Positions 5,899-63,248 of a DNA stretch of 64,000 nucleotides are shown here, piece by piece. Each line of letters starts with the position of its first letter. Within the stretch, counting starts at the first letter, position 1. Below the pieces are notes generated by a model that saw only the letters and a program-made list of their open reading frames with translations, made no database searches and was not told where the DNA came from. The position numbers and the translations under genes are program-made. Origin of the DNA: Candidatus Latescibacterota bacterium (GTDB taxonomy: Bacteria; Latescibacterota; UBA2968; UBA8231); contig OZ242005.1 of assembly GCA_965204725.1 (NCBI GenBank), forward strand, positions 1,088,001 through 1,152,000. Direction: 5' to 3'.

Positions 5899-8800
5899 AT
5901 GCCGCTGCGGTTGTTCCTTTTTCTCGTTTTCGTTCTTCCATCCCAAGCCCTAGCAGCCGAGTTTGCCTGCGCGGCGTTGAAGTCGGCGGCGCAGCCGGTT
6001 GCACCGGCGCCGGAGCATCTAAGCGCGTTGGTTATCTTCGCGCAGTTTGCAGACGAGCGGGCCGGCGACTCAGCCCCCTCGTGGGCGGATGACCTTTTCG
6101 ACGCTGAGTTGCCCGGCAGCTTTGCCCACTTCTACCGCGAGATGTCGGCCGGCCAGCTCCACGTGGGGGGCCAAGTGTTGCCGCGGCGCTATCGCTCGCG
6201 TGCGGCCGCAGCGGCCTATTTGGCCGAGACCGCCGGGGCCTTGGGCCAGTTTGGCCGCTTCAATCTGGAGATTCTCACGGCCGCCGACGCCGACGTTGAC
6301 TTAGGGCTTTTGACAACGATGGCCCCGACGGAGTGCCCAACTCCGGCGACGACGACGGGTACGTCGATATCGTCTTTATCAACCTGCATACCTCGCCCCG
6401 CGACTTTTTTCTCGGCGTGGCCACGGGCATCGCCAGTCTGGGGCTAGACACCGATTACATCAGCGACGACTCAGCGGCCGGCGGCGGCTTTGTGCGAGTG
6501 CGGAGCCGCTTTGAAGGTTTTAGCGGGACTACGCAGCGAGGCCACACCTTCGGCATCACGGCCTCGACGATGTGCCACGAGTTCGCGCATGTGTTGGGCT
6601 TGCCCGATCTCTTCGATCAGACCGCGTTGACCGTGGCCGAGTTGGACCCGGAGGACGATTCAGCCGGCATTGGCAAGTGGGGGATCATGGGCCGAGGGAC
6701 GCTGGGTTGGACCGTGGCCGATGGGCCTAACGCGTTTTCAGCGTGGTCGCTGGCGACCCTCGGTTGGGTGGAGGTGGTGGAAGTGCAAGGGAGCGTTGAG
6801 GGGCTGGAGATCGGGGATATCTTCAGCGACCGGAAGGCGTACAAAATTCCCCTGACCCAAGACGAGTACTTCCTGCTGGAGCACCGGCGCGCCAACGGCT
6901 CATACTACAACCGCAATATCCCGCAAGACGGCCTGCTCGTTTGGCACATAGACGAACGGGCCGACAACGACGAGGAACGCCACAAACGGGTCGATTTAGT
7001 CTGCGCCGATGGGCTTTTTGCCGACCGGGGTTTTCCCAACGGCACCCCCGACCCAGTGGAAGGCCGCGACAACCTCGACTTTTGGTCGCGGGACGGGGCG
7101 TATTCCTCGGCGCACAATGGCAATGAGGGCGACGCGACCGACCCTTTTGACGGCGTTCGCTTTCGCCGCTTTGCTTGGGACACCAATCCGGCCCTCAGCG
7201 GGTACACGGGCTTTGCGCGGAACTTGCCGTTGGGCGTGGCCATCGACAACATCCGCCCGCACGGCGGCGCGATGGTCGTCGATGTGGTCCGGTCGCAACG
7301 CGCCGGGCACATTGTCGGCGATGCGACGTGGACGGGCCGGGTGGATTTGGACGGAGACGTGGTCGTGACGCCGGGCGCAACCCTGACCATTGAAGCCGGT
7401 GCGGAGATCCGCTTGGCCCGCGGCGATGTACAGGGCACGGGGTTTGATCCCGACCGCAGCGAGTTGATCGTCTATGGCGATCTCAAAATCGGGGAAGGAG
7501 CCTCTTTTGCGTCGAGTGCGCCGCGCACTGGTCCGTTGGATTGGTCGGGCATTTACCTGCTCGACGGCCAAGCGGTCAATCCCGCGGCCTTCGCGATCGA
7601 CCACGCCCATCGCGGGATCGTCGGTTTCCGGCTTCCCCCGGGCCGGACTCAGTGGCTGGGCGAGCGGGCCGTGCATGCGGATTTGCTGGTGCCGGTCGGG
7701 TCCGAACTACACATTGGCCCGAGCACCGTGTCTTTTGCCCGCTTTGATCTCGGCCGGCGCGGCGCGTCCGCAGACTTCACCGAGCTGATCGTGGAAGGCG
7801 CGTTGACGATTGCAGGGATGGCCGGGCAGCGGGCGCAGCTAACGACCGATCCCGGGCCGGACAACGATGGCTTGTGGCATGGCATTCGCGTGCGGCCGGG
7901 GGGCCGAGTCGAGGTGCAGCACGCCGAGCTAACGCGCACGGCTTTTGCCTTTGCCGGCGAGATCGACGAGGAGACGATCCTGCGCATCGCCGACTCCGCG
8001 GTGCGCGAAAGCGGCGGCAACGGCCTGCGGCTGACGCTCAATGGCCGAGCGCAGGTAGATCGGAGTGAGTTTACCACCATTGCCGGCCCGGCCGTGCTCG
8101 TCGCCGGCCGCGGCCAACTCGCGTTGTACAACACCACCATTGAGGGCAACGGCCAAGAGGGTATTCTGCTCAATAACGCATCCTTAGAGGCCATTCGCGT
8201 CGCCGTAATCGACAACGGTCGCCTCAACCCGGACGCCCCACGGGCTGGGGTGCGGGCCTTGGGCGGTCGCGGCCAACGCATTGAGATGTGGAAGTCGCAG
8301 ATTGAACAAAACACCGCGCACGGCATGGACTTGGAGGCGTGGCTGGGGGAAGTGGAATTGAACGACAGCCGCCTCGTCGGCAACCAAGGCGATGGATTGC
8401 GGGCCGAGGGCGCGGCGCGTTTGGTCCTTGCGGATGTGTTAGTCGAGCGCAACTTGCGCGCCGGAGCCGAAATCGCCGGGTCGGTGGTGGAGATATGGAA
8501 TTCGACGTTCAGGGCGCATATTGACGCGGGGCTGCGCTTGGGGCCGGGGACGCGGGGTTTGATTGAGCAGAGCACGTTTGTCGGGGGTCGGGGTTTGGAG
8601 CTAACCGGCGTGGAGTCGCTGGAGATTCGCGCCAGCGAGTTTGTCCGCGGGACGCCGGCGCTTCAATCCGTAGATGCTGCGCCGCATATCGTCGGCAACC
8701 GCTTTGCGGACAATACCGTCGCCATCCGGGTCGAAGGCCCTCGGGTGCCGATGGCGGTCCGCGACAACACCTTTGCCAACAACGCCACGGCCCTTGAGAA

Positions 8801-43920: not shown

Positions 43921-43997
43921 GGGCGGTTAGCTCAGTTGGTCAGAGCGCCTGCCTTACAAGCAGGATGTCCCCAGTTCGAGTCTGGGATCGCCCACCA
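43921..43997 (+). tRNA. tRNA-Val(TAC)
   Basis: GGGCGGT/ATCGCCC acceptor stem, TAGCTCAGTTGG D arm, CCTGC-CTTACAA-GCAGG anticodon arm, TTCGAG T loop, encoded CCA. Confidence 0.97.
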
Positions 43998-48935: not shown

Positions 48936-49943
48936 TTAGGCGCACAGGGGATGCGCCATCTGGGCGCGGCGGAAGGGGATGTCGATTTGGTCGCCCTGAT
49001 TGATGGCGGCCATTTTGGCCCGCGCCTCCAGCCACAGCCGGTGCCACTCGGCCGGATCGCGCAATTCGCTGGCTGGGTCGCGGCGGCTGCGGGCGACAAA
49101 CCCGGGGAAGGCGATGCGCCCGGTGGGCTGGTCGGTGGGATTGTAGCGCAGGTCAAAGCTCCAACGAACCTCGTCGCTGAGGTTGGAATACGAGCCGTGG
49201 ACGGTCTGCTTGTGCATGCAGATGACGTCGCCGCGCTCCACCGGCAGGGGGATGGCCCGGTCGGCCGCGAAGAGCTTTTCCGGGACTTGGGCGGCCCCGG
49301 CAAACTGGGGCGCGTTGTCCATGTAGTTGGGGCAGTGCGGCAAGAGGCCGTTTTTGTGCGAGCCGGGCGCGACCATCAGCGGCCCCTTCTCAACGGGGGT
49401 GTCTTGCAGCGGGAACCACACCGTTAGCATCTGGGTGTCGTCGGCTTCTTCGGTTACGACGCCGTGGTCTTGGTGCCATTGGGTGGCCCCGAGGACGGCG
49501 TTGCCGAACTGGTTTTTGGGCAGGTAGCGCTCGGGCGGCTTGATCCGCACGTGCTGGACCGGGTTGGAGTAGATTTCCGGGCCGATTAGCGACTCGACGA
49601 CGTCGAGCAGGTTGGGGTCGGTGAAGGCGCGGAAGACGGCTGGCCCGGCCCAGAAGGGGGTGTCGGCCTGGACGTTCTGAAAGGGCAGCGAGAAGTCGAA
49701 GTACTGGCTGTGGACGCGGCCGGTTTCCACGCAGATTTGGATGTAGCGGTCGCCGAAGCCGAGCTCGTGGTAGCGCGAGGCAATCTCGCCTTGATCGTAG
49801 AGCTCGTCGGCCAAGTGGTCGAGGACGGTGGCATATTCGTCAATGACCGGGTCGAGGGTGTTGACCGGATCGAGGACGCCTTTGACGACGAGGTAGCCTT
49901 CGCTGGCAAAGTGGTCGAGTTGGGCGGGGGTGAGGGCGGGCAT
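48936..49943 (-). CDS. PhyH family dioxygenase
   Basis: WHQD, PGSH, TVHGS, RWSFDLRY motifs; RBS GGAGG. Confidence 0.9.
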   Translation of the reverse strand: MPALTPAQLDHFASEGYLVVKGVLDPVNTLDPVIDEYATVLDHLADELYDQGEIASRYHELGFGDRYIQICVETGRVHSQYFDFSLPFQNVQADTPFWAGPAVFRAFTDPNLLDVVESLIGPEIYSNPVQHVRIKPPERYLPKNQFGNAVLGATQWHQDHGVVTEEADDTQMLTVWFPLQDTPVEKGPLMVAPGSHKNGLLPHCPNYMDNAPQFAGAAQVPEKLFAADRAIPLPVERGDVICMHKQTVHGSYSNLSDEVRWSFDLRYNPTDQPTGRIAFPGFVARSRRDPASELRDPAEWHRLWLEARAKMAAINQGDQIDIPFRRAQMAHPLCA

Positions 49944-49998
49944 GGGCGTAGCCTCCATTGGGTTCGGGTCAGTGGCTGGCGGTCTCTCTACAATACAG

Positions 49999-50023
49999 TA
50001 GGTTGCTGCGGTCTGGCAAGGGG
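49999..50023 (-). repeat. phyH upstream (promoter-like) segment, duplicated at 53360-53384
   Basis: taggttgctgcggtctggcaagggg vs taggttattgcggtctggcaagggg (23/25); contains a TTGCCA -35-like hexamer on the minus strand. Confidence 0.8.
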
Positions 50024-50062
50024 CATCATAGCCGTTGCTTTGCGGATGTTTCTCCGATTTCC

Positions 50063-51982
50063 TCAATCGGCCTTTTGTTTTGCCTTTTGCAGTTGGTTAT
50101 AGCGCTCCAGAAATTCGTCGTGTGCTCGTTTTACCATGTCGAGTAGGTCTGTGTACCTTCTGACGTAGATTTGCGAGTTTGCTAAAATGTCTTTTTTTCC
50201 TCTCGCTTGATCAGTATTAACCAAATCTCCGCAAAGGAGATACCCGGTGACTGTCTCATATTGATAATCACTATCCGTCGTCCGGTTAATGTAAGCTCGC
50301 ATAAAGATAACGTACTCTTCAATTTGGTTGAGTTCCTTCACAGAAGCGTTTGACTGTGGGCGTTTGATTTCTACTACGACCAAGTTCGCGCCTTCTCGTA
50401 CACAGAGGAAATCAATGCGTCTGTCTCTTTCCGGGGCGTCGCTGTCTTCTGGGAATTTGTCGCGCAGTAGTTGACTGTATGTTACCTCGTCATCTACCAA
50501 CGACCAACGCGGGTCAATCACCCAAGGGAATTCTTTTAGGAAGTTGTGGAGCGTCGGCACTTCCAACGCATTGTCTTCAATCAGTTTTTGGAGTTTTTCA
50601 ATCGTCGTTATGCGCCCTTGAGTAACTCGCGCCATTTCTTTGGCTTCGACGATTTCCCACTCGCGGAATAGGTTGAGGAGCTTTTCGGTGTCCTCGAACT
50701 CCGTTTCAGTTAGGTCTTCGGCGATTTCCCAAAAGGCATCGAACTCGAGAAAATCGAGGGATGTTTGGATGACGGGTTCGATCTCCTCGACATCGGCGGT
50801 TGGGTTCTTGTCGATCACTTGACGCACCAAGCGGTCGGCGAGCTTCAGGGCGCGGTTATTGCCCGTTTCCTCGGCTTGCTCACGGAACTTAACGTAGAGT
50901 GCATTTTCCTCTAGTTGCTGTTCGTTATCGTCGCGGCGTTTTTTGGCCCACTTACGGGCGATTTTTTTGACCTCTTTTTGGCCCCACTCCTTGAGAGCCG
51001 TATTGGGTTCCGTGTCCCATACTAGCGAGTTTCGCGTCGTCCCGATTGTATCTTCCCCTTCATCGACAAACTCGACGTGGAGTTCGCCAATAAGGTAAGA
51101 GAGGGCGAATTGTTGACCGACAACGGCTTCAAAAACATAAGGCTCTTGTACTAGCTTGCCTCTCGCCATGAGAACGATTCCTCGGTCTATGCCGTCAATG
51201 TCCGGCGTCGTGCGGTTTAATGCACCGATCCAGCCCGATACGGTCCAGCCCGTTTGGGGCTGGATTTCTACGTCGTCGTACTCCCATAAGTACGGCTTGC
51301 CGTCCATGTCTTTGTCGAGTAGGGATTTGAGGTCGCGGTCTTCAGGCGAGATTGGGTCGCCGTTAATGACGACCTCGAAGCCTTGTTGTGCGCCAATGAC
51401 GGAGAATCGTCTGGCGAGTCCTCTACGGATTCTCTGAATCGAAATGCGGCGGCTTTTGAATTTTGTGATATGTCTGAGTATGATTTTCGTTCCTTTGGAG
51501 ACGGTTCCGGTAGGCGGCAGCGGCGGAAACTCGATGGTGCGTTCATCCGCTTTTTCCAACAGTTCGTCGTAGTTCATGCGGAAGTGGCTGCCTTCGCTGT
51601 CTTTCACGCTTTCTATGTCGATCTCTTTGGCGATGCCAAAGGCCGAGAATTTGCCAATGCCTTTTCGGCCCATGATCTTGCGGTTGTGCGGCGAAGGTGT
51701 CAGGTCGGATTGCTCGTTTTCGCGGCGGTCTCGGCCGACGATGAGGTACTTGTTCCGCACGTCCTCGTCGGACATGCCCATTCCGTCGTCGCTGATGATG
51801 ATTTCCGAGTGTTCGTCAATCGGTTTTTCGGGTATCTCAATCTCAACTTTGGTTGCGTTTGCGTCCCAGCCGTTGGCGACGAGTTCGCCGATGACGGGTG
51901 GCAGGGTCGAGTACATCTGCAAGCCGAGGTGTTTGATGGTGCAAACGTCGAACTCCATTCGGTAGGGGTCTCTAGAAGCCAT
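50063..51982 (-). CDS. GHKL (MORC/MutL-like) ATPase fused to a PD-(D/E)XK nuclease; putative restriction component
   Basis: ELVANGWDA, DDGMGM, GRKGIGK, KGT motifs; C-terminal RIDFLC...VEIKRP...QIEEY. Confidence 0.85.
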   Translation of the reverse strand: MASRDPYRMEFDVCTIKHLGLQMYSTLPPVIGELVANGWDANATKVEIEIPEKPIDEHSEIIISDDGMGMSDEDVRNKYLIVGRDRRENEQSDLTPSPHNRKIMGRKGIGKFSAFGIAKEIDIESVKDSEGSHFRMNYDELLEKADERTIEFPPLPPTGTVSKGTKIILRHITKFKSRRISIQRIRRGLARRFSVIGAQQGFEVVINGDPISPEDRDLKSLLDKDMDGKPYLWEYDDVEIQPQTGWTVSGWIGALNRTTPDIDGIDRGIVLMARGKLVQEPYVFEAVVGQQFALSYLIGELHVEFVDEGEDTIGTTRNSLVWDTEPNTALKEWGQKEVKKIARKWAKKRRDDNEQQLEENALYVKFREQAEETGNNRALKLADRLVRQVIDKNPTADVEEIEPVIQTSLDFLEFDAFWEIAEDLTETEFEDTEKLLNLFREWEIVEAKEMARVTQGRITTIEKLQKLIEDNALEVPTLHNFLKEFPWVIDPRWSLVDDEVTYSQLLRDKFPEDSDAPERDRRIDFLCVREGANLVVVEIKRPQSNASVKELNQIEEYVIFMRAYINRTTDSDYQYETVTGYLLCGDLVNTDQARGKKDILANSQIYVRRYTDLLDMVKRAHDEFLERYNQLQKAKQKAD

Positions 51983-52001
51983 AACATACCTCCTTATTCA
52001 A

Positions 52002-52097
52002 GACTGGATTCCCGCCCCGTGTCGGGGCACGGGGTGACGTTCTTTCGCGGGAATGACGCCTTAGTATGAAAAAAAACGGTTCCGATGAACATTCCAT
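52002..52097. repeat. Composite REP-like element, copy 2
   Basis: Matches 17722-17817; fills most of the gap between the C5 MTase and GHKL-nuclease genes. Confidence 0.85.
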
Positions 52098-52098
52098 G

Positions 52099-53118
52099 TC
52101 AACATGAATCGGCGATTGATTGGCCCAATTGTTCGGCGAGTTTTACCGGGACGGCGTTGCCGATTTGGCCCGATAAAAATAGAAAAGATGGGCCGAAAAA
52201 TTCGTAATCGTCGCCAAAGGTTTGGAGCGCGGCGGCCTCGCGCAATGAGATGCCTCTGTCTTGCTCGGGGTGGATGAAGCGGCCACAATAGACGTCTGTG
52301 CAGCGGCACGTTAGGGTTGGGCTCGGCGCGTCCCATGTCATGCGGCCAAATACGTCTTTGTGGGCGTTCGGCTGCTTTTGGTGGCACTTGAGTAGGATGG
52401 ACGTGTCCGCTACTTCCCGTCGGCTGCCGCCGTTTTTGGGGACGGCCGCGACAATGCGTTTGTGGTGTGGTTGCAGTTTTCTGGCGACGTGATTCGGGTA
52501 TGCCGCTGATGCTTCGCCATCGGCAATAGTCGGGTACTGGCCAATGGCGCGGCGCACGGTTGCATGGGCGGCGGTCTGTGGGCTGGGGAGCGCGGCGGCC
52601 CCGTGTCGGGAGGCCACGACGATGAATCGCTTGCGCGTCTGCGGAACGCCGAAATGTTTTGCGTCGATTAAGTCCGCTGCTTCTGAAAAGCCGCATCTTC
52701 TCAGGACCGACAGAAACTCTCGGTAGATTTCTTTGCCGTAAGCGTTGTTTAGTCCGGGAACGTTTTCTGCTAGGATGAAGTCGGGGGGGCGTTCCGCGAC
52801 GATTTTGGCAAAGTCCAGTAGGAGGGCTTTTCGTTTGTCTTGACCTTTTAGCTTATTGAGGGTGGAGAAGGGTTGGCACGGCGTACAAGCCGCGTAGAGC
52901 GTCAAGTCGTCGTCTTCAATGCCGAGCTCTTGGAGGAGTTTGTGGATTTGAATGTCGTTGATGTCGCTGTTGATGAAGCGGCATGGTTTGTTATTGTGTA
53001 TGTAGGTCTCCCGCAAACGTAGATCATTATCGACGCCGGCCAGCACCGAGATGCCGACATTCAACAGTCCTCTGGTTAGACCGCCCGCTCCGCAGAAGAA
53101 GTCAATGGCTTTAATCAT
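52099..53118 (-). CDS. dcm: DNA (cytosine-5) methyltransferase
   Basis: DFFCGAGG, PCQPFS, ENVPG, GVPQTRKR, REAAALQTF, IGNAVP motifs. Confidence 0.95.
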   Translation of the reverse strand: MIKAIDFFCGAGGLTRGLLNVGISVLAGVDNDLRLRETYIHNNKPCRFINSDINDIQIHKLLQELGIEDDDLTLYAACTPCQPFSTLNKLKGQDKRKALLLDFAKIVAERPPDFILAENVPGLNNAYGKEIYREFLSVLRRCGFSEAADLIDAKHFGVPQTRKRFIVVASRHGAAALPSPQTAAHATVRRAIGQYPTIADGEASAAYPNHVARKLQPHHKRIVAAVPKNGGSRREVADTSILLKCHQKQPNAHKDVFGRMTWDAPSPTLTCRCTDVYCGRFIHPEQDRGISLREAAALQTFGDDYEFFGPSFLFLSGQIGNAVPVKLAEQLGQSIADSC

Positions 53119-53359
53119 GGGGGGCCTCGTGGTGCTCTAAGGCGGGCAATCCCTTCACGATCTTCACTGTCTCCAAACTCACCGTAATCATCTTGCCGAT
53201 CAACTCGACGATGTATTGCGGCTCGTCCCCTCGATTCGGATCATTGGTGATACCGCTTCGTTTGTCTGTCTTGACGCGGTACTGGTCGATTATCCATTCC
53301 AACGCCGACCGATTCCCGAGTTGATAGTCATAAGTTTCCGGTGGAATCCCGTCGAGTGT
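53111..53359 (-). pseudogene. Duplicated 3' end of the Type ISP/IIG RM gene
   Basis: 53136-53359 aligns without gaps to 57601-57824 (21 mismatches in 224 bp by manual count); its stop overlaps the dcm start. Confidence 0.9.
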
Positions 53360-53483
53360 TAGGTTATTGCGGTCTGGCAAGGGGGTTATGCGCCGATTGA
53401 GCGGCAAATCTCGGCCTGAGTTAGTGATCATAATCTTTCCGCCTCAAGAGGAACTTAGGTTCTTCGGCGATTGGCCTAAGCTA

Positions 53484-54980
53484 TCACCGTGAGTAGTCCG
53501 ATGGATTTTTCATGTTACCATTGATCACAAATACAAATGCCTTAGATGGAAAATCTTTGGCTGTATCGACTCCCCCATGAGTCTCGACATCAGTGAGAAT
53601 AATATCGTTCCGAATGTCCCCAGGAGGTTTATCTTTAGTCGTCAGGTCGAGCACGAGAAGGATGCTGACTTGTCGGGCTTCGACGCCTGCGTATTGAGTA
53701 GCTTGGGCTGTGTACTTTTTCGAGATGTGCTCTCGGTCACCGTTTTCCTTTTCGACTTTTAGTTCGACAATCACTCCGAGATACCTAATATCTGTGACGC
53801 CTCCTGCTTGGCTTGAGTGTTCTTGTACATCCTGTCCGAGCACATTCCGAAGATCTCGAAGCACTGTTGCTTGGAACTCGGACTCCGATACATCACTCTG
53901 TCCCTTGTAGATTGCTTCTTGAGCATAAGTAGCTAGCAGACGAGTGAGAGCCTGAAGCATCTTTAACAAGTCAGGAAGTTCATCTCGGACCTTGGGACAG
54001 TCTGAAAGCAGACTTGTGGCAAGTTCGTTAATGTGTTGATCCAGCCTCCGGTTGCCTGTCATCAGGGGATGCCTGTCTTCATTAACAACTTTGAGACGCA
54101 GCTCATTGTGCCCAATTACGGGGAGTTCAATGAACTTCCCGTCGGACGTTTCAAATGCACCACGAACTGTAAACACAAGATCATCTAGACCGATACTTTG
54201 CTCTGAATTGAACTTAATTTGTCCTGCTAATTTCCCCCGATATTCGCCGTTTTCAACACTACCCGGTGCGTCCAGCGCAAACTTGGAAACCGAGAACTCG
54301 GTTGAGGGACACGTCGTAAGCAAGTCAAGGTGAAGGCGAACCGCATCATTTGGCCATGTGAGGCCACGCACCCGAAATTCCAAAGGGTACAAAATATTGG
54401 GCTTTAAGAGTTGCGGACTTGCAAGCGGAGCATGATCCAGAAATACAATCACCCTCAACATCGGGCTTAGCGTAGCTACGGGTTCTTCTACCTCATCTTG
54501 ATACGGAAGATCCAATTTGCTTCTATGCCAGTACAATATAGGTAGTGGGACTGCCAATAGGAATGTACGCAGTTCGTCGGAATCGTATTGCCCTGTTTGG
54601 AGCAACGGTTGACGAGTTGAATCCGCGATACCCGGCAGTGTGAGAGTGTCCGCCGAAATCCAACGTCGTAGCTCACCAACTAAGACATCGCATCTTGTAC
54701 GTTCCGCAACCAAGTCACCTTCACTCCCTTGGGCAATTGCTACACAAGTAACTTGACTGACCAAGACACGTAGGCCGGCAACTATGACCTTCCACTCTAT
54801 AGGTACATGTTCATCTGGTGTCTGTTTAATAAGTTTGTCAATCTGATCGACGAAGGTATCAACTTTCTGACGCCATTCTACTTTGTCATAAGTTGTCGAG
54901 TTCAAAATCGTGCGTATATCATGAATGAGTGCTACTGAATTAGAAGCATGGTTAATATCCAACTTGGATTCCCGCATCAA
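53484..54980 (-). CDS. Uncharacterised protein with C-terminal PD-(D/E)XK-like nuclease
   Basis: ESEFQ...GGVTDIRY..VIVELK...QATQY...LLVLD pattern; low GC; start overlaps the upstream stop. Confidence 0.7.
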   Translation of the reverse strand: MMRESKLDINHASNSVALIHDIRTILNSTTYDKVEWRQKVDTFVDQIDKLIKQTPDEHVPIEWKVIVAGLRVLVSQVTCVAIAQGSEGDLVAERTRCDVLVGELRRWISADTLTLPGIADSTRQPLLQTGQYDSDELRTFLLAVPLPILYWHRSKLDLPYQDEVEEPVATLSPMLRVIVFLDHAPLASPQLLKPNILYPLEFRVRGLTWPNDAVRLHLDLLTTCPSTEFSVSKFALDAPGSVENGEYRGKLAGQIKFNSEQSIGLDDLVFTVRGAFETSDGKFIELPVIGHNELRLKVVNEDRHPLMTGNRRLDQHINELATSLLSDCPKVRDELPDLLKMLQALTRLLATYAQEAIYKGQSDVSESEFQATVLRDLRNVLGQDVQEHSSQAGGVTDIRYLGVIVELKVEKENGDREHISKKYTAQATQYAGVEARQVSILLVLDLTTKDKPPGDIRNDIILTDVETHGGVDTAKDFPSKAFVFVINGNMKNPSDYSR

Positions 54981-57541
54981 GTTTTATCCTTTCCCTTAGC
55001 AAAATATGCTTCAGCCGCTACTATGTCACCTGTTTGTAGTGATGCGTTTCCTGCGGCGATCATAGCAAGTTGCTTTAATTTTGTGCGAAATGCTTTGTTC
55101 CTTGGTTCTTCAGGGAGAGCGTTGAATGCGGTCTCCAATACTTTTTGCTCATACCGAAATGAACGAAAGTGCGTGAAAAGGCTTGCGAAATGGCATGATT
55201 CCCAAGGGTCGAGTTTGGCCAATTTTTGGGCGGAGACTAAGAGGTCACCTGCTACGTGCTGATACGTCGCTTCCGGTAGTTTATGTAACCACTCGAAGAA
55301 TCGAAGACGTTTTGAATGTCCGTAGTAATTATAGCGATCTCTGCTATGGTGTGCTAGATGCACACCAATGTCCTTGGCAACAAATTTAGCAATTTCTTCG
55401 CTTGGCTCGCAGAACCAAATCAGACTTTCCGCGATCTTGCTATCTACAAGGTCTTCTTTAGTCGGAAAGACAGACTCAACTAGGCGCAACGCTACTGGTT
55501 TGAAGATCGCATCTTGCTGGCCAATTTTCAGGATTGCATCGCAGATACTTTCGAGTTGATATTTATCATTATGGTACACACGAAGGTGTGCTTCAAGACA
55601 ATTAAGAACTTCAAGTAGTTGACTTTTATTAAACCACCTTGAACACCGAGCCACGGCTTGTCGTGCAGCCTGATGAACAATTACTTTCGGGTCTTGTAGG
55701 TGAACGACAATGGTGTCCACAAGATTTTGGGGTGGCATAGTAGTCGAAAAAGAGAACATCTCGACTGTTGCGTTTATTGCTTTAGCCCGCACCCAAGCTG
55801 AATCGTAATCCATCAACGTACGCCAAATCAAAGGCAGTACGCGTGTTTGGAGAGTATAGTTCTTGCCAAGCTCACCGAGCAACGATACACAGCACACCTT
55901 GAATTCGTCCTCAAGATGTACTGGCGGTTGGTTCAAACAGTTGAAGACAGAATCGAATGTCTCTGAAGGATTGGCCTTGCAGAGTTCGTTCAAGCATCCC
56001 TGCAATCGTCCTTTGAATAAATCCCATTCTTGGATGCGCCCTAATTCTTCTAGCTGCTCAAGTTGAGTATCCTGTGCCTGAGTCTGGTTAGGTAACAGAA
56101 TCGTGGGTGGTGGAGAGGGCGGACGTTCCTCGCCACTAATGATGGCAAAATAACCGAGGAGAGAGTCAAAATGATTCAGCATCTCTGCCGAGGCATTCAT
56201 ACAGGCAATTTTCAATGCCTCAAGTGCATAGGATCGAATATCGATCTCGAATCTGTCATCTTTAGTCCATGAAAGTAGTCTTTTAATTGCAATCTTTTCC
56301 TGTTCATCTACTTCAGTTCGGTTTCTATGCTCATGCCGTTCATCCCAGCTTATGGTCTGGTCGAAAAATTGGCCTAGGTACACGAGAACAATATCTTCTT
56401 GCACGGCTGGACGAACGCGGATCATTGACCCGGCAAGAAACTGGTCAACTCTCTCTGAGGAACATCGAAACGCCGATTGCAAAATTTGGATAATCTGCCT
56501 TGATGGCCTCACTTCATGTGACCGTGTATTTTCGTAAAATTCAAGTGATTGAACTAAGTCACCAAGTAGATTCTCGACTATCTGTGGTCGTTCGCACTGA
56601 ATAAGTTTGATTGCTCCACACAATTGGAAGCGTACGGCCACATTCTCGTTTTGTAGTTCACGGCGAATAATGTCTTGCACACTCTCTGGATCAGTGTCAA
56701 AATTTCGTACGATGACTGTGGTACTGTGACAGGAGTGATTCTGTGAAAATATCAAGTGTTTGATACATACTTCACTAAGTGGATACTCAACGGCGTCATC
56801 GAGCGCGTTAATCACCTCAGCAGACAGTTCTGTATATTGTCCTTTCTCAATGTTGTCAAAAGCTACTTGGCTAAAACGAGAGCCTAACTCAGAGCGTCTG
56901 CTGGCGAGTTCTGTGCAGACTGGAAGCATTAGATCAGAAAAATCGTTGGAACCAGCAAGCAGCAAGATCAGATCAATCGCAGCTTCAGGGAAAAGGTCCG
57001 CCCCCAAGCGTGCTGATTGTTGCAAGCGTTCGGCTGCTTCCTTGCGTTCTGCTTCATTTTCTGAGAAAATCGTCTCAAGATACTCAAGTATGCGATAAGA
57101 CTCAGATTCTGATTCCGAACTAATTTCTTTGGATTTTTCACGTAGGTCAGAGCGAAGTTGGGATATTCGCTCCGCTTCTGTTTCGGCTGCTTGAGTACGT
57201 TCTTGGACTTCTATCCGGTGTTTATCGATAATCTCTTGTCCCCACGAGGTATCTCCATTAGGGGTATGATGCGGACAAGTAGCACAATGTTTTACAAGAA
57301 AATTGGAGAAAATACAACGAAGATTCATGGACTCGCGCATGCCCTCTACTTTGGGACAGCCTATGCTATGGCTTGCGATGGGAAGCCCTGTCATCTGTGC
57401 GTAAAGCCCTTCAGTAGTTCGCTCGATCTCTACATATTTGCACCAACTCCGCATTTGGCTTATGCACTCAGCATTGTCCTCACCGAGCTTTATAGCCTGA
57501 TTAAGCTCATTAGCTTGAGATTCGTCAAATCGTCGCATCAT
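54977..57541 (-). CDS. Uncharacterised HEAT/ARM-repeat protein with N-terminal Cys/His motif
   Basis: C...CxxCxHH motif, coiled coil, HEAT-like units (VRFQLCGAI, IRSYALEAL, VRAKAINA, LQDPKVIVHQAA), TPR-like end. Confidence 0.7.
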   Translation of the reverse strand: MMRRFDESQANELNQAIKLGEDNAECISQMRSWCKYVEIERTTEGLYAQMTGLPIASHSIGCPKVEGMRESMNLRCIFSNFLVKHCATCPHHTPNGDTSWGQEIIDKHRIEVQERTQAAETEAERISQLRSDLREKSKEISSESESESYRILEYLETIFSENEAERKEAAERLQQSARLGADLFPEAAIDLILLLAGSNDFSDLMLPVCTELASRRSELGSRFSQVAFDNIEKGQYTELSAEVINALDDAVEYPLSEVCIKHLIFSQNHSCHSTTVIVRNFDTDPESVQDIIRRELQNENVAVRFQLCGAIKLIQCERPQIVENLLGDLVQSLEFYENTRSHEVRPSRQIIQILQSAFRCSSERVDQFLAGSMIRVRPAVQEDIVLVYLGQFFDQTISWDERHEHRNRTEVDEQEKIAIKRLLSWTKDDRFEIDIRSYALEALKIACMNASAEMLNHFDSLLGYFAIISGEERPPSPPPTILLPNQTQAQDTQLEQLEELGRIQEWDLFKGRLQGCLNELCKANPSETFDSVFNCLNQPPVHLEDEFKVCCVSLLGELGKNYTLQTRVLPLIWRTLMDYDSAWVRAKAINATVEMFSFSTTMPPQNLVDTIVVHLQDPKVIVHQAARQAVARCSRWFNKSQLLEVLNCLEAHLRVYHNDKYQLESICDAILKIGQQDAIFKPVALRLVESVFPTKEDLVDSKIAESLIWFCEPSEEIAKFVAKDIGVHLAHHSRDRYNYYGHSKRLRFFEWLHKLPEATYQHVAGDLLVSAQKLAKLDPWESCHFASLFTHFRSFRYEQKVLETAFNALPEEPRNKAFRTKLKQLAMIAAGNASLQTGDIVAAEAYFAKGKDKT

Positions 57542-57572
57542 TTCCTCGATTCTCCCTGTCAGATGTCGCTAT

Positions 57573-60500
57573 CTATATATGTTTTTTGTTTTTCTGCACA
57601 TCCAACTCCGGCAACCCCTTCACGATCTCCACCGTCTCCAAGCTCACCGTAATCACCTTGCCGATTAGTTTGACGATGTATTGCGGCTCGTCCCCTCGAT
57701 TCGGATCATTGATGATGCCGCTTCGTTTGTCTGTCTTGACGCGATACTGGTCAATTACCCATTCCAACGCCGAGCGATTCCCGAGTTGATAATCATAAGT
57801 TTCCGGTGGAATCTCGTCGAGTGTCAAGAAGTCGTTGTACTTGATATGCGTCTTGTCTTTGGATAGGCGCATTTTCTCTACGCGCCAGTCGAGCGGCGCG
57901 TCCGGGTTTTCGATGAAGTTGAGCCGATGTTCGGGTTGGGCTTCATAGCCGACGTGGAGTTCTGCCAAGCGTTGCCCCGCTTTGGCAAAGGCCCAGAAGT
58001 CCGGGGCGTAAGGGATGTGCGGCAAGTCTCGCTTGAGGTTGGCTTGGTATCGCGTCCGGTATTCCGGGTGGTGGAGCAAGCCATAGACGTAGTGGAAGAT
58101 GGCGCATTTGGTGATGGTGTCGTCGCTGTAATGCGAGCGGAATTGGGTCAAGGCCCAGTCGGTGATGTTCTCGCGGCGGTTGCTGCCGTCCTCGTCGTAG
58201 ATGTAGAAGGAGAAGCATTGGGTTTTTTCAAGTATGTCAAGACACGGAATCATAGAAGCCATCAGGGTTTGAAAAGGTTTGTTACTTCCGATGCCACTGA
58301 CACAAATCACTCGATTTTCTTTTTCTGTCTCAGGTATGGGGAAGATGGAGGGGAAAGCGTACACCCTCTCGTTCATCAATCGGTCAAAGTAGAGGTTCGG
58401 TTTCGTGAATGGACGATAGGATGATACCCTTATCTTTTTTTCTGAAAAATTAGCGGTTCTCCCTCTTGCTAAGTTTCGTTTAAGGGCCTCGCTCCACTTG
58501 ATTTTTTGATCATCAGAAGTCACAAAGTCATCGATATTTGCATCTTGATCCGTCCGTTGTTTCCATCTGGATCTCTGCTCGTTGTAGGTATCAATCATCC
58601 GCTTCATGTTACCAGTGAGCACATTTCGATCAAAGTTGTACGCCCAATCATTGCGGCTCGTGTTGACACCAAGGCTATAAATCTTAAATATCACATCCGC
58701 TCCCTCGCCCTTCTTCGCCTTTGCTTCCCGACTTCCCATCGGCACAAAAATTTCAAATCCTGTGTCGAGTCCTTCCGTGAGCCATGTATGTTGTCTGTCT
58801 GGCGTTATTGGTTTCCATTCGACGTTGCGGTAGTGTTCCTTTGAAGCAAGATAGCGATACTTTTCTTCTTTGCGCCAGAACTCGTCAACACGAGCGTAAG
58901 AAATTTTGGTAGGGGAATTTGCACTGTCGTTCTTTTTGATAAAGATGTTAATGCTCACACCGACTTGGATTCCAAAGACGTTGTGCGTCGTGCCGGAGAG
59001 CTTTGGATTTTTGCGAACATTCCCGCTCAAATCGAGAATGTAAATCGCGTCAAAATCATCTGCCAAATGTTTTCGCATTCCGTCAAATGCCACGCCTTCG
59101 AGAAATCCATTGTTCGTTACCAGCGCGATAATGCCTTCATTTCCGATCCGGTCTGATGCCCACCGAATCGCTTTTACATAATGATCGGAGAGTTTACTTT
59201 TATTTGACGCCTTAGAGGCTCGCGAATACGTCTCCGCAACCCGCTTATCCATCGTCTCGTACTTCCGATTTTTGTTATTGTCGTTCTCGTTGACTTGGCC
59301 GACGTTGTAAGGCGGATTGCCGACAATCACAAACATTTCCGTTTCCTTTTGCCGTTCAACCCGCGCCGTGTTCTCCTCAGTAAACAACGCCAACTGATGC
59401 TCCTCGGCCAGTTCAAACGTATCGACCAAGCACAGCCCTTCAAACGGCTGATAACGCCCCGTCGCCTCGTAGAACTCGTGCTCAATGTTCATGGACGCGA
59501 TGTAGTAAGGCAACAGCATCACCTCGTTGCAGTGAAGCTCGGACGAATACTTGGCCTCCAGCGCAGTGCGGCGAATCTCGCGCATCATGCGGACGATGAA
59601 ATTACCCGTGCCGACAAACGGGTCGATGATGTGAACGCCCGCGTCCGAGAGCGAGCGACCAAACTCAGTCTGCAAAATCTGCTCAACACTTCTCGCCATA
59701 AAATCGACAATCGGCTGCGGCGTATAGACAATGCCGTGCGTATCGGCGACTTCCACTGAAAACCCCTGAAAAAACTGCTCATAAACCGTGTTGAGGAAAT
59801 GCTGCTTTTGAGAAAAGTCATGGATGGTTTCCGCTGTTCGCTCAATCGCGACATAGAAGCGGTCGAGGCTCTCGAGAAAATCGCGGCGGCTAAACGACTG
59901 AGACGTAAGCGCGTCAATGACCCGCTCGATCTCGTGGGCAATCACGTTGCGCCGCGTAAAATCGGGATTGCTAAAGACGGTGCGGAAAATCCGCTCGGTC
60001 AACAGATGCTGAACGAGCATCTCCTCAACAGCGGCTTGAGAAAGATTGGGATTGATGGACTGCCGACACTTATCGTAGAAATCCGCAAAGGCCGTGGTGA
60101 AGCGGCGGTTGGTCTGCCGCTCCCGTTGAATCAACGCCGCCAACCCTCGCCCAATGTCGGGAACCTTGTCCTTGAACTGAGCGACCGCCTCGTCCCATTC
60201 GGCAATCGCCGGCGGCCGGTGCGAAAAAAAGGCGTCGAGCGTCTGGACGAGTTGCGCTGGGTCGGTCAGATCAGCGTCGAGAACAAGGGCGTCGTTCTGC
60301 CACAAGATCGCTCGTTGGGGCGTTTGGAACAGGATGTTGTCGCTGGGATACCCAGCCGCAAACTTGCGCTGCACTTCGGCGGGCAAGTCGTCGTCTATGT
60401 CCTTAGCCTCCCAATAGCCATGCGGCAAATTAAACTCGTCGATCAGGGCACCATCGACGCGAATGCGCTTGTTCTGAGGGAGCGCGATAGAATGCTCCGG

Positions 60501-60662
60501 CACAAGCGTCCACCGAAACTGCTTCCCACACGTTTCAAGCAACGATTGAAACGCCGAGCGCACCGCAGTCTCATGCTCGACGCCGATCTGCTTAAAGGCA
60601 TCGAGCGATTCGTAGTACGCCGTAACGGGCTTGTGCGTGGGCTTGAGATTGAGAGTCGGCAT
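57573..60662 (-). CDS. Single-chain restriction-modification enzyme (Type ISP/IIG-like, no helicase domain seen)
   Basis: RVDG...YWEAKD nuclease, GIVYTP, DPFVGTGNF, GNPPY, YRPF, YVYGLLHHPEYR motifs. Confidence 0.9.
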   Translation of the reverse strand: MPTLNLKPTHKPVTAYYESLDAFKQIGVEHETAVRSAFQSLLETCGKQFRWTLVPEHSIALPQNKRIRVDGALIDEFNLPHGYWEAKDIDDDLPAEVQRKFAAGYPSDNILFQTPQRAILWQNDALVLDADLTDPAQLVQTLDAFFSHRPPAIAEWDEAVAQFKDKVPDIGRGLAALIQRERQTNRRFTTAFADFYDKCRQSINPNLSQAAVEEMLVQHLLTERIFRTVFSNPDFTRRNVIAHEIERVIDALTSQSFSRRDFLESLDRFYVAIERTAETIHDFSQKQHFLNTVYEQFFQGFSVEVADTHGIVYTPQPIVDFMARSVEQILQTEFGRSLSDAGVHIIDPFVGTGNFIVRMMREIRRTALEAKYSSELHCNEVMLLPYYIASMNIEHEFYEATGRYQPFEGLCLVDTFELAEEHQLALFTEENTARVERQKETEMFVIVGNPPYNVGQVNENDNNKNRKYETMDKRVAETYSRASKASNKSKLSDHYVKAIRWASDRIGNEGIIALVTNNGFLEGVAFDGMRKHLADDFDAIYILDLSGNVRKNPKLSGTTHNVFGIQVGVSINIFIKKNDSANSPTKISYARVDEFWRKEEKYRYLASKEHYRNVEWKPITPDRQHTWLTEGLDTGFEIFVPMGSREAKAKKGEGADVIFKIYSLGVNTSRNDWAYNFDRNVLTGNMKRMIDTYNEQRSRWKQRTDQDANIDDFVTSDDQKIKWSEALKRNLARGRTANFSEKKIRVSSYRPFTKPNLYFDRLMNERVYAFPSIFPIPETEKENRVICVSGIGSNKPFQTLMASMIPCLDILEKTQCFSFYIYDEDGSNRRENITDWALTQFRSHYSDDTITKCAIFHYVYGLLHHPEYRTRYQANLKRDLPHIPYAPDFWAFAKAGQRLAELHVGYEAQPEHRLNFIENPDAPLDWRVEKMRLSKDKTHIKYNDFLTLDEIPPETYDYQLGNRSALEWVIDQYRVKTDKRSGIINDPNRGDEPQYIVKLIGKVITVSLETVEIVKGLPELDVQKNKKHI

Positions 60663-60668
60663 TGTATT

Positions 60669-60828
60669 ATGGCTCGGTTGTCGTCGCTACGTCCGGGATC
60701 GAGGGCGTCCCGACGTGCGATCCTTATCTATGGTCGATTGTCCTAGCCGCCCCGATGGCTCGGTTGTCGCCGTTGCGTCCGGGATCGAGGGCGTCCCGCC
60801 CTCGCCGAGGGCAAGATGCCCTCGATCC
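60669..60828. repeat. 44-bp near-tandem direct repeat plus REP palindrome
   Basis: 60669-60712 vs 60755-60798 (3 mismatches); ggatcgagggc...gccctcgatcc palindrome at 60782-60828. Confidence 0.8.
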
Positions 60829-60930
60829 GTGGAGGCTGGTGTCGCGTAATAAGACTTTCATTATTATAAACACAGAACAACGTCAAGGGCCATCCAACTC
60901 GTCCGCCGCCCATCCTCGGAGGAAGCCGCC

Positions 60931-63248
60931 GTGCCTCCCGCACTCCAAATTCCGCTGTATCCCCGCCTGCTCAAAATCCTGCAAAGCGTCGGCGCGGTCC
61001 TCTCGCTCGCCAGTGCGCTCTCAGCCGAGTCGCTCCGCTTTGACGCGGCCAATGAGTGGCAGACTTGGCCCTTGCCGCTGGGGATTGTCGCGCTCGACGA
61101 CGCCGGAGTCATCCGCCCGGTCGAAATCCGCAAAAACCCCGACCCGGTGCGCGATGCCGCAGCCTTTGGCGGCGGAATTCACGCAGCAGGCTCCAACTCG
61201 CTGGCCGCAGCGCGAGCCATAGACGGAGATCAGCAAACCGGCTGGAGCCCCAACTTGGCCGACGACTTAGACGACTGGTGGATCGAGATCGACTTGGGAC
61301 GAGCCGTGGCCGCGCGGCGAGTAGTGCTGACCTTTTTGGAAACTGCGCCGCCGTGTGCGCTGTTCGACGTGTTGCTTTCCACCGGGGAGCCAGCCATCGA
61401 CGTAGTTGGCAACCCGATTGAAGGCAGCCTCGTGTACCGCGTGCAGGAGCGCTTCAAGGAAAACCAACGGCCGCAGGTCGCGCTAGAGCTAGACCCGGTG
61501 CGCGACCCGTTCGTGCAATTTATCCGCGTCGAAATGCTCGACTGTGGGGCCGACGCCGCACTGGCCGAGGTGGCGGTCGAAGCCATCGGCGACAACCTCG
61601 CCTTGGGGCTGGCGGACAAGGGCGGGGGCTTGGAACTCATCGTGGATATTGACGGCTTTGGCGACGCCGCGTCGTTTGCCAATGTGCTGCCGCTGGCCGA
61701 CGGCCGGTTTTCCCTGTGGACAGAAAACCGCCGCATCAACCGCTCGGTGGATGTAATCTCGCGCATGACGTTGGACTTGGGTGCGGTCTTTTGGGTGGAT
61801 TTAGTCCGCATCGTCGGGACTTTTTGTCGCGCCCGGGGCAATTCCGCTTCAACTTCGACCGCTACGAGGTGCTGACCGCAGATGGGTCGCTGGCACCAGA
61901 CGGCACGCGGATATGGCACCGGCAATTCGCCGGCAAGGCCACCATGTCCAATCGCCAGCTCGGGATCGCCAACCACCACTTCGCGCCGCTTGCGACGCGC
62001 TACGTGCGGGTCGAATGGGTGTTTTGGGACGCGGCCTGCGCGGCCGCTTGCGTGGGGTGCGGCATTGTGCCGCCCTGCCAGTTTTGGGGCGGTACGCGCG
62101 AGTTGCAGGTCTTTGGCGAGGGCTATCCGCAGCGGGTGGTGTTGCCCTCGCCCCTGATCGACTTAGGCGGCGACAAGCAGGTACACGCGATCCGCTGGCA
62201 GGCCGACGCGCCCGCCCAAACGCGGGTGGAAGTCCGCAGCCGCACCGGCAACGACCTGCAAATGGACATCACCTATCACGACAAAAACGGCCGGGTCGTT
62301 TCCGAGCGAAAGTACAACAAGCTCATTCCGTCCTTTAAGGGCCGGATTGACACCGCGCTTTCCCCAGGGGCCGATTGGAGTCCGTGGAGCAAGCTGTATT
62401 TGCAGCCGGGCGAGCCGTTCGCGTCGCCCTCGCCCCGCCGCTACGCCGAGTTGGAGGTCGCCTTGGTGTCCGAGCGGCCGGATGCGGGGGCGGCCTTGGA
62501 TTGGCTAGTGCTTGAGTTCGGCGACCCGGTGGCGCGCACCGTGGTGGGGGAGATTTTTCCGGTCGAGGTGCAGCCGGGGGAGCGGACCGAGTTTGCCTAT
62601 TACATTCGTCCGCAGCAGGTGGCCGGCCGCGGCTTTGACCACTTGGCGGTGGAGACCTCCGCGCCGATTGAGTTTGTCTCGGTGTTGGTTGAGGGCGAGG
62701 TGGTGGAAGCAACGGCGGAGCCAACGGAAGGGGGGCTGGCGGTCGCCTTAGCCGCGCCGGTTAAGAGCCGCCAGTTAGTGGAGCTGCGCTTTGCGGGAAC
62801 CGTGTTTGTCGATGCCACGCGCTTTGACGCCTTTATTGGCCAAGACCAAGTGCGGCAGCGAGTGGAGGCGGGCGATGCGTCCTCAGCAGTCGCCAGCAGT
62901 ACCAATGCCGTGCGCTTGCCCGTGGGAGCGCGGCTGTTGGCCAACGTGTCGATGGGGCCGCTGTGGTTGACTCCCAACGGCGACGGGGTCAACGACGCCC
63001 TACGAGTGGAATTCGACTTGGTCAATATGTTGGCCGCCCGGTCTATCGGCCTGCGGATTTTCGACCTTGCGGGGCGACTGGTGTGGGTGCGGGCAGAGGA
63101 GGGCCGGGCCGGTGGTCGGGCTTGGGTTTGGGACGGCCGGGGGCGTTGGGGGGCGCCGGTGGGGCCGGGGTTGTACATCGTAGAGTTGCGCGTTGAGGGG
63201 GACGAGCAAAGCTACAGTCGGCAGCGCGTGGTCGCCGTGGCGTACTAG
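60931..63248 (+). CDS. Secreted discoidin/FlgD-like protein (paralog of 44619-46583); frameshift at ~61816
   Basis: ORFs 60931-61875 and 61716-63248 join with +1 G (IVG|DFLSRPG); IDLG, WSPWS, TPNGDGVND motifs. Confidence 0.72.

Follow-up and report, generated by a model that had tools for sequence, protein, structure and literature searches.

In a stretch of 64,000 nucleotides (nt) from Candidatus Latescibacterota bacterium (contig OZ242005.1, positions 1,088,001 to 1,152,000 of the forward strand, hereafter the window), we analysed two overlapping genes, here called A and B (positions 53484-57541), which encode the proteins P0001 and P0002, respectively. With a probability of roughly three in four, the pair branches deeply within the long form of the Olokun (OloA/OloB) anti-phage system and is carried as a horizontally acquired cassette in a restriction-modification (RM) island. 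We establish below its homology, linkage, fusion, architecture, conserved residues and context in defence islands or next to mobile elements. An earlier interpretation made from the letters alone (the sequence-only reading) had proposed the pair as a candidate undescribed system, without a match among the named ones. This does not hold, as both proteins are remote homologues of an Olokun pair called by PADLOC at locus L029; the window pair is a known kind of system, a divergent member missed by one standard model set. The earlier failure to find a match is understandable, because Pfam is blank for both proteins and PADLOC v2 returns a partial OloB match and no OloA match.

Olokun loci were sought with the PADLOC OloB model in 401 genomes of the class to which locus L002 belongs. 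Four genomes matched at E ≤ 1e-10, three of them with a short form of the system (L026, L027 and L028) and one, gammaproteobacterial, with the long form (L029). The L029 pair consists of P0243 (851 amino acids, aa) and P0244 (481 aa), which match the PADLOC models of OloA (PDLC03925) and OloB (PDLC03926) at 4.3e-45 and 7.9e-51, respectively. In BLASTP, P0001 aligned with P0243 over 709 columns at 23 % identity (E 1e-21; A residues 8-659, the W-C...C...CxxC pattern included) and P0002 aligned with P0244 over 365 columns at 26 % identity (E 1e-21; B residues 141-498). A hidden Markov model (HMM) of the window A clade, built without P0121, gave 111 bits to P0243 and 102 bits to P0121, and the HMM of the window B clade gave 101 bits to P0244. 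The Olokun features found in the window are the adjacent, co-directional genes in the order A then B, a helical-repeat A free of any nucleoside triphosphatase (NTPase) domain and the homology to a strongly scored pair.

Several observations weigh against this assignment. The PADLOC OloA model had no match to P0001 at E ≤ 0.1, so that window A fails a direct match to the model of its own subunit, and it matched only one of ten other members of the window A clade (P0111, 9.9e-4). The OloB match to P0002 is weak and partial (1.6e-5, 22 bits, residues 288-452 against positions 214-455 of the 556 in the profile, with agreement in a repeat on the genome) and weaker than that of LmuA (PDLC03853, 1.8e-20, residues 300-497 against profile positions 445-653 of 655). 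All three tested members of the P0244 clade scored strongly with OloB (7.9e-51, 6.9e-36 and 1e-21); outside this clade eight of nine tested proteins scored between 7.4e-14 and 1.5e-3, and P0295 had no match at E ≤ 0.01. In a B tree of 96 rows, the window protein falls into a clade of 27 rows with a Shimodaira-Hasegawa-like approximate likelihood ratio test (SH-aLRT) support of 99, and a branch with 100 % SH-aLRT support lies between this clade and another, of 15 rows, to which the three strong OloB scorers belong. From the tree position and the model scores we conclude that the window pair is a deep branch of the superfamily and not a close member. The short-form proteins have no detectable similarity to those of the window (BLASTP E 0.24-0.44, hhalign E 0.4-0.6, HMM 5 bits or nothing). 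When the whole B model was searched with Foldseek and with VIA-align in wide mode, matches to the helical bundle and to the immunoglobulin (Ig)-like domain were listed and no nuclease; the larger domains filled the lists, so the small C-terminal domain was not really probed. Three of the ten other loci scanned for neighbours (L010, L014 and L016) have only housekeeping genes next to the pair. That the experimentally studied PfOlokun is a long form is something we infer from the wording of the accessible part of a preprint (10.1101/2025.07.10.664194). Finally, for the window pair we only infer that A and B form a complex and in what stoichiometry, bind zinc, act as a nuclease, tell phage DNA from other DNA and protect against phage.

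The short-form Olokun loci (OloA of 521-580 aa and OloB of 564-578 aa) are the top scorers on the PADLOC OloA and OloB models. Between the short-form and long-form pairs we detected no similarity by BLASTP, hhalign or HMM comparison. Since the two forms are not detectably similar, the simplest reading is that the seeds of these PADLOC models mixed the two kinds of pair.

The scores could also mean that the window holds a distinct, unnamed defence system, which has only a nuclease domain in common with Olokun and with a variant of LmuA and has arrived at a similar architecture by convergence. In its favour, the best PADLOC match of B is LmuA, confined to the C-terminal 200 residues, OloB follows far behind and OloA gives nothing, and the B tree places the window clade and the PADLOC-positive clade in opposite halves. 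We consider it unlikely, because the similarity to the L029 pair reaches beyond the nuclease, to B residues 141-498 and to A residues 8-659 with the invariant Cys pattern, and because the L029 pair has the same gene order and matching protein lengths (851 and 481 aa vs 854 and 498 aa).

Both genes belong to widespread families. A word-index search at E ≤ 0.001 returned 116 homologues for A and 217 for B, both families being of constant length, and an exhaustive profile search returned, at E ≤ 0.001, 529 clusters of B (50 % identity), of which 415 reached ≤ 1e-10 and 161 reached ≤ 1e-30; with such numbers the two open reading frames (ORFs) are not chance ones. The members are spread over Latescibacterota, Planctomycetota, Chloroflexota, Cyanobacteria, Gammaproteobacteria, Bacteriovoracales and others. 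Species genomes were scanned and gave 19 loci, of which 17 have an A-like sequence immediately upstream of B. In the two exceptions (L015 and L019) the contig ends within B, and the linkage is thus 17 of 17 where upstream sequence exists. Full-length A was found in one piece in 12 of these 17 loci; A is cut by the contig end in L002, only its last 303 residues are present in L006, and it was matched in two to three pieces in L017 and L018. In L005 (5373-9604) we observed an A split by an insert of ~1.7 kb carrying an ORF of 559 aa (6509-8188) on the same strand, with B intact.

The linkage extends to gene fusion. Among the 150 B representatives listed, 15 have lengths of 1201-1498 aa, and 12 of these have an A-like N-terminal part. 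The fusions always join the C-terminus of A to the N-terminus of B (e.g. P0094), and the maximum-likelihood B tree of 96 rows requires at least five separate origins for them. Such recurrent fusion supports a direct contact of the OloA C-terminus with the OloB N-terminus. The linkage, together with at least 12 fused representatives, also bears out the expectation of the sequence-only reading that the two genes occur together.

The N-terminal module of B (bundle and Ig-like domain, approximately residues 1-300) occurs with other C-terminal domains as well. It is joined to PNP_UDP_1 in P0321 and P0356 (1.1e-13 and 1.5e-19) and to EAD1 in P0348 (6.7e-19), and in P0283 tetratricopeptide (TPR) repeats are joined to a B-type nuclease domain. 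A metagenome scan with P0321 kept 80 loci, all of which match the PNP part alone, with no A-like or B-N-terminal sequence. The PNP and EAD1 forms are possible signs, at the level of sequence, of effector exchange in the B subunit.

Directly upstream of A, on the same strand, lies a Type ISP/IIG RM gene whose stop is separated by 31 nt from the start of A. A and B might be accessory subunits of this enzyme, functional only as an operon ISP-A-B, in line with the short gap, with the copy of the ISP 3' end that flanks the cassette and with an ISP gene (72-77 % identity) directly upstream of A in L001 and L007 too. These are, however, only two of the 17 other loci with upstream sequence, and in the remaining 15 tblastn found no ISP homologue in the locus. 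Moreover, the A-B fusions of 1201-1498 aa never include additions of ISP size, and the L029 pair and the PADLOC-defined family stand alone as two genes. An accessory role is therefore highly improbable, and the Type ISP gene is a neighbour of A, not a conserved partner.

For the wider context, we scanned the nearest ORF of at least 130 aa on each side in ten other loci (20 proteins). A defence-type nearest neighbour was found in four of them (L003, L004, L005 and L008), namely Type I S subunits (L003, L005), DarT (L003), a DNA methylase (L004), Schlafen/AlbA_2 (L005) and a Type IIG enzyme (L008). Adding the window, L001 and L007, all with the ISP gene, brings the loci with a defence-type immediate neighbour to seven of 13. 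Replic_Relax or a Mu-type transposase is the neighbour in L012 and L018, and in L013 neither neighbour has a Pfam match. A Pfam tally over 130 neighbouring ORFs gave N6_Mtase (6), ResIII (3), AAA_15 (3), HATPase_c_4 (3), rve (3) and DDE_Tnp_1 (3); it covers 14 loci and excludes L002, L015 and L019, which are too short, and L009 and L011, which nearly duplicate L010. The neighbourhood of defence genes suggested by the sequence-only reading recurs in part of the loci, and in the window it takes the form of a horizontally acquired defence island.

The mobile-element neighbours in L012 and L018 and the housekeeping-only surroundings of L010, L014 and L016 would also suit a function other than phage defence, such as mobile-element maintenance, a toxin-type module or a DNA-processing pair of the island itself. 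This seems quite unlikely to us, as the pair is homologous to a catalogued anti-phage family that is reported to be defensive in the accessible part of its description (10.1101/2025.07.10.664194), and RM, DarT or Schlafen-type genes flank it in seven of 13 loci. Moreover, 50,697 phage records searched by tblastn with B gave no match, and 72,556 plasmids gave only two, both weak and partial.

The coordinates of the pair, its domains and its neighbours are collected in Table 1. The letters at the junction of A and B read ...ACT TGA TG..., and B may start either at TTG 54980 (overlap of 4 nt, 498 aa) or at ATG 54977 (TGATG, overlap of 1 nt, 497 aa). The ATG is favoured because most B homologues have 497 aa. 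Either start would be compatible with translational coupling of the two genes. A and B have GC contents of 0.451 and 0.470, respectively, lower than those of the flanks (0.645 and 0.639). Two overlapping ORFs of low GC, as first described, are indeed present, the second probably one residue shorter. A pattern scan for the Walker A motif [AG]x4GK[ST] found none in A or B. No Pfam domain was matched in either protein, and NCBIfam was likewise uninformative for A. A scan for promoters and terminators was uninformative, with terminator-like sites rarer than in shuffled sequence.

Table 1. Positions in the window of the genes A and B, their domains and the neighbouring genes of the island.
Feature	Position	Strand	Basis or remark
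Gene A, OloA-like	54977..57541	minus	ORF, 854 aa, ATG start
A N-terminal domain, residues 1-97, presumed Zn site	57251..57541	minus	invariant C34, C62, C86, C89
A single long helix, residues 99-143	57113..57247	minus	DSSP on AlphaFold2 model
A alpha-solenoid, residues 146-851	54989..57106	minus	AlphaFold2 secondary structure, Foldseek
Gene B, OloB-like putative nuclease subunit	53484..54980	minus	ORF, 498 aa from TTG 54980
B N-terminal helical bundle, residues 1-146	54543..54980	minus	putative docking site for A
B Ig-like beta sandwich, residues 174-301	54078..54461	minus	
B C-terminal predicted PD-(D/E)xK-type nuclease domain, residues 385-498	53487..53828	minus	topology, motif, PADLOC matches
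B codons D397, E406, K408	53790-53792, 53763-53765, 53757-53759		
Type ISP/IIG RM gene, 1029 aa	57573..60662	minus	Pfam Type_ISP_C 2.7e-106, ISP_coupler, N6_Mtase
106-aa ORF, second copy of ISP 3' end	53111..53431	minus	Type_ISP_C 2.1e-14, profile 285-342 of 342
dcm-type C5 cytosine methyltransferase	52099..53118	minus	PF00145 1.7e-53
GHKL-ATPase restriction enzyme, BbrUII/HgiDII type	50063..51982	minus	PF13589 3.3e-22, PADLOC REase_II 5.6e-51

The AlphaFold2 (AF2) model of A (predicted local distance difference test, pLDDT, 88.8; predicted template modelling score, pTM, 0.69) runs from a small alpha/beta N-terminal domain through the helix 99-143 into an all-helical, continuous solenoid that reaches residue 851. 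Foldseek with this model returned HEAT proteins only (E 8e-7 to 2e-5, template modelling (TM) scores of 0.2-0.35), among them SF3B1, the karyopherins Kap121p and transportin, and CAND1. Some A homologues carry precomputed HEAT_2 (PF13646) or Adaptin_N (PF01602) annotations, and the profiles of A and B found nothing among solved structures except HEAT repeats and a designed helical binder. The HEAT-like repeats without Walker A that had been read from the letters are supported by the solenoid, the Foldseek matches and the motif scan. The coiled coil and the TPR-like end proposed for the same protein were misread: in the model the former is the single long helix and the latter is part of the solenoid. 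PADLOC LmuB has a weak match to A (4.6e-4, residues 78-252) around this long helix.

The most conserved part of A is its N-terminus, where ten of the 21 invariant columns of a 29-sequence alignment sit within the first 90 residues. The Cys cluster of the original description was recovered there as C34, C62, C86 and C89, all invariant, along with G20, N23, W33, G45, L53 and P54. The four-Cys pattern is retained in P0243, in P0121 and in all 12 A-like fusion proteins (seven match the regular expression with W-C, and five have H-C by eye). Such an invariant Cys4 is what a metal site, whether structural or functional, would look like, and A presumably binds zinc. A search of the ESM Atlas with A residues 1-145 gave no usable match.

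The AF2 model of B (pLDDT 79) begins with a helical bundle (9-143), continues through a beta sandwich (175-298) and a pair of long linker helices (305-381), and ends in a C-terminal alpha-beta-beta-beta-alpha-beta unit. D397 is placed at strand 2 of this unit and E406-L-K408 in strand 3, and D397, E406, K408, Q426, Q429 and Y430 are invariant in 27 sequences. The helical N-terminus, the beta-rich middle and the D...ELK...QxxxY residues noted from the letters therefore correspond to modelled domains and conserved positions. The restriction fold of the C-terminus is predicted from topology, motif and domain matches in PADLOC, and the LmuA match recurs across B clades at 1e-13 to 1e-20, in seven of ten representatives. 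The motif suggests that B would cleave DNA in a metal-dependent way, using D397, E406 and K408. Taken as an NTPase-free solenoid paired with a predicted restriction-fold nuclease, the original description is supported.

What the pair may do can be outlined with the help of Olokun itself. The accessible part of the preprint describes Olokun as a 2:2 OloA-OloB complex of ~278 kDa, in which OloA is adaptin-like, OloB consists of an N-terminal helical domain and a PD-(D/E)XK nuclease, and the PD-(D/E)XK domains are adjacent (10.1101/2025.07.10.664194). The same part reports that PfOlokun degrades the DNA of T7, SEC 17 and SPO1, but not E. coli genomic or plasmid DNA, that it nicks plasmid, and that every operon assayed gave protection against one phage or more; OloA is not among the P-loop accessory proteins listed there (10.1101/2025.07.10.664194). 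By this analogy, A would be an NTPase-free HEAT/adaptin-like scaffold with a four-Cys, presumably zinc-binding N-terminal module, and B would be the effector, whose helical bundle and Ig-like sandwich dock on A and whose C-terminus is the PD-(D/E)xK nuclease. A would bind the helical N-terminus of B, as the preprint and the fusions suggest, probably in a 2:2 assembly similar to PfOlokun with the two nuclease domains side by side. The assembly would cut phage DNA while sparing that of the host, through some cue. As the pair has no NTPase, its activation cannot be driven by nucleotide hydrolysis within the pair.

A broader picture, which we offer only tentatively and hold to be rather doubtful, is that the named Olokun is one branch of a much larger family of immune sensors that lack an NTPase and are mostly uncatalogued. 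In such a family, the invariant Cys4 (zinc) module at the tip of the HEAT solenoid may sense the trigger or DNA, and the bundle and Ig module of B may be a general adaptor to interchangeable effectors. The effectors so far may comprise PD-(D/E)xK (the window), PNP-type nucleosidases (P0321, P0356) and EAD1 (P0348), and sensor and effector may have been fused repeatedly into a single chain.

The island around the pair spans approximately 50,000 to 60,700, with a GC content of 0.45-0.56 vs 0.64 in the host. Its gene order is Type ISP/IIG RM, A, B, the 106-aa ISP-fragment ORF, dcm and the GHKL enzyme, with no other content; Pfam and NCBIfam confirm the setting between a Type ISP/IIG gene and a dcm/GHKL pair that the sequence-only reading had given. 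The 106-aa ORF overlaps the dcm start. The GHKL protein matches NCBIfam NF050001 at 2.4e-111 with 373 bits, under the cut-off of 550 bits, and the two genes, dcm and GHKL, are probably a Type II system of their own. Weak HSDR_N-like matches were also seen in the GHKL protein near residues 518-570. The island is flanked by ordinary chromosomal genes (PhyH, MFS, and CHU_C proteins with a type IX secretion system (T9SS) signal), and no integrase was seen among the island genes.

The A-B cassette is bracketed by a direct repeat of 224 nt of the ISP 3' end (53136-53359 and 57601-57824, 91 % identical). The duplicated ISP 3' end suggests past recombination between related islands. A second ISP fragment is absent from L001 and L007, and the 224-nt bracket is found in the window only. 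A cassette-less form between the 224-nt repeats was sought in contigs of four sequencing runs over 49500-61500 and none was demonstrated; the joints from 53188/53190 to 57726/57736 in those contigs have only 22-24 letters on their shorter side and are hence unreliable. In run X5, one contig lacks 53197-53480. A 25-nt repeat lies 3' of both B and the GHKL gene (53360-53384 and 49999-50023). At the high-coordinate edge of the island we noted a GC-rich direct repeat of 44 nt (60669-60712 and 60755-60798, 93 % identical, 86 nt apart). On the other side, a tRNA-Val (TAC) at 43921-43997 lies ~6 kb off the low-coordinate edge, with ordinary genes in between (Cache, a T9SS-signal protein, MFS, M14-like and PhyH).

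The same five-gene order, ISP, A, B, dcm and GHKL, is present in another Latescibacterota genome (L001, 4281-15211). The proteins there are 77, 80, 92, 80 and 85 % identical to those of the window, in this order, and the shared arrangement means that the whole island, not the pair alone, moved between lineages. Near-identical DNA of 53484-57541 was also seen in sequencing runs, including runs labelled as marine metagenome and sponge metagenome. Twenty rows from nine studies contain all or part of this DNA, 13 of them at least half of the sampled words, and no RNA run is among the rows listed.

The consequences reach beyond this locus. With 529 B clusters and one tested clade strongly scored, PADLOC v2 misses a large share of the family; the prevalence of Olokun is therefore probably underestimated, and similar loci will keep being called novel. 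Olokun is a named system that, in the literature searched, only one study has examined biochemically (10.1101/2025.07.10.664194). The accessible part of that study does not mention the Cys4 N-terminal module, the most conserved part of the long OloA. The gap in detection is one useful by-product of the analysis; others are the invariant Cys4 module, the repeated fusion of A and B, and the signs of effector exchange.

Among other known systems, DISARM and BREX were considered because of the methylase neighbour and rejected, as PADLOC gave only a weak PglX match (2.4e-4), which is the ISP gene. Lamassu is approached by the C-terminal ~200 residues of B, which match the C-terminal 200 positions of LmuA PDLC03853. 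This likeness is at the level of the domain and not of the full length, and the pair has no LmuB partner of the structural maintenance of chromosomes (SMC) type. Lamassu was thus rejected for want of an SMC ATPase, A being without Walker A and its LmuB match reaching only 4.6e-4. With the Avs systems of the STAND class (signal transduction ATPases with numerous domains), which the sequence-only reading had named for comparison, the pair shares a repeat solenoid combined with a restriction-fold effector and the location in defence islands. However, neither A nor B has a STAND NTPase, and the pair has two subunits where Avs has one chain, the fused forms excepted. Membership was rejected since neither protein has a Pfam NTPase domain or Walker A.

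The short form of Olokun resembles the window pair in its two overlapping genes, A then B, in its recognition by the same PADLOC models and in its helical OloA. It differs in that the N-terminus of OloA has no Cys4 module and that a nuclease-like D...SxK motif, read by eye, lies near the N-terminus of OloB. PfOlokun, compared by the description in the accessible part of the preprint, fits the domain order of the window pair, with an adaptin-like OloA for which no NTPase is listed and an OloB made of a helical part and PD-(D/E)XK. Its complex, phage-DNA degradation and plasmid nicking are experimental, whereas the window pair is known from genes alone. The closest counterpart is the long-form Olokun pair of L029, which, although only 23-26 % identical, likewise has two overlapping genes, A then B, of nearly the same product lengths (851 and 481 aa vs 854 and 498 aa). 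In both, A carries an N-terminal x-C...C...CxxC module followed by a helical solenoid without Walker A, and B has a helical N-terminus, a beta-rich middle and a C-terminal AGG(I/V)TD...ELK motif.

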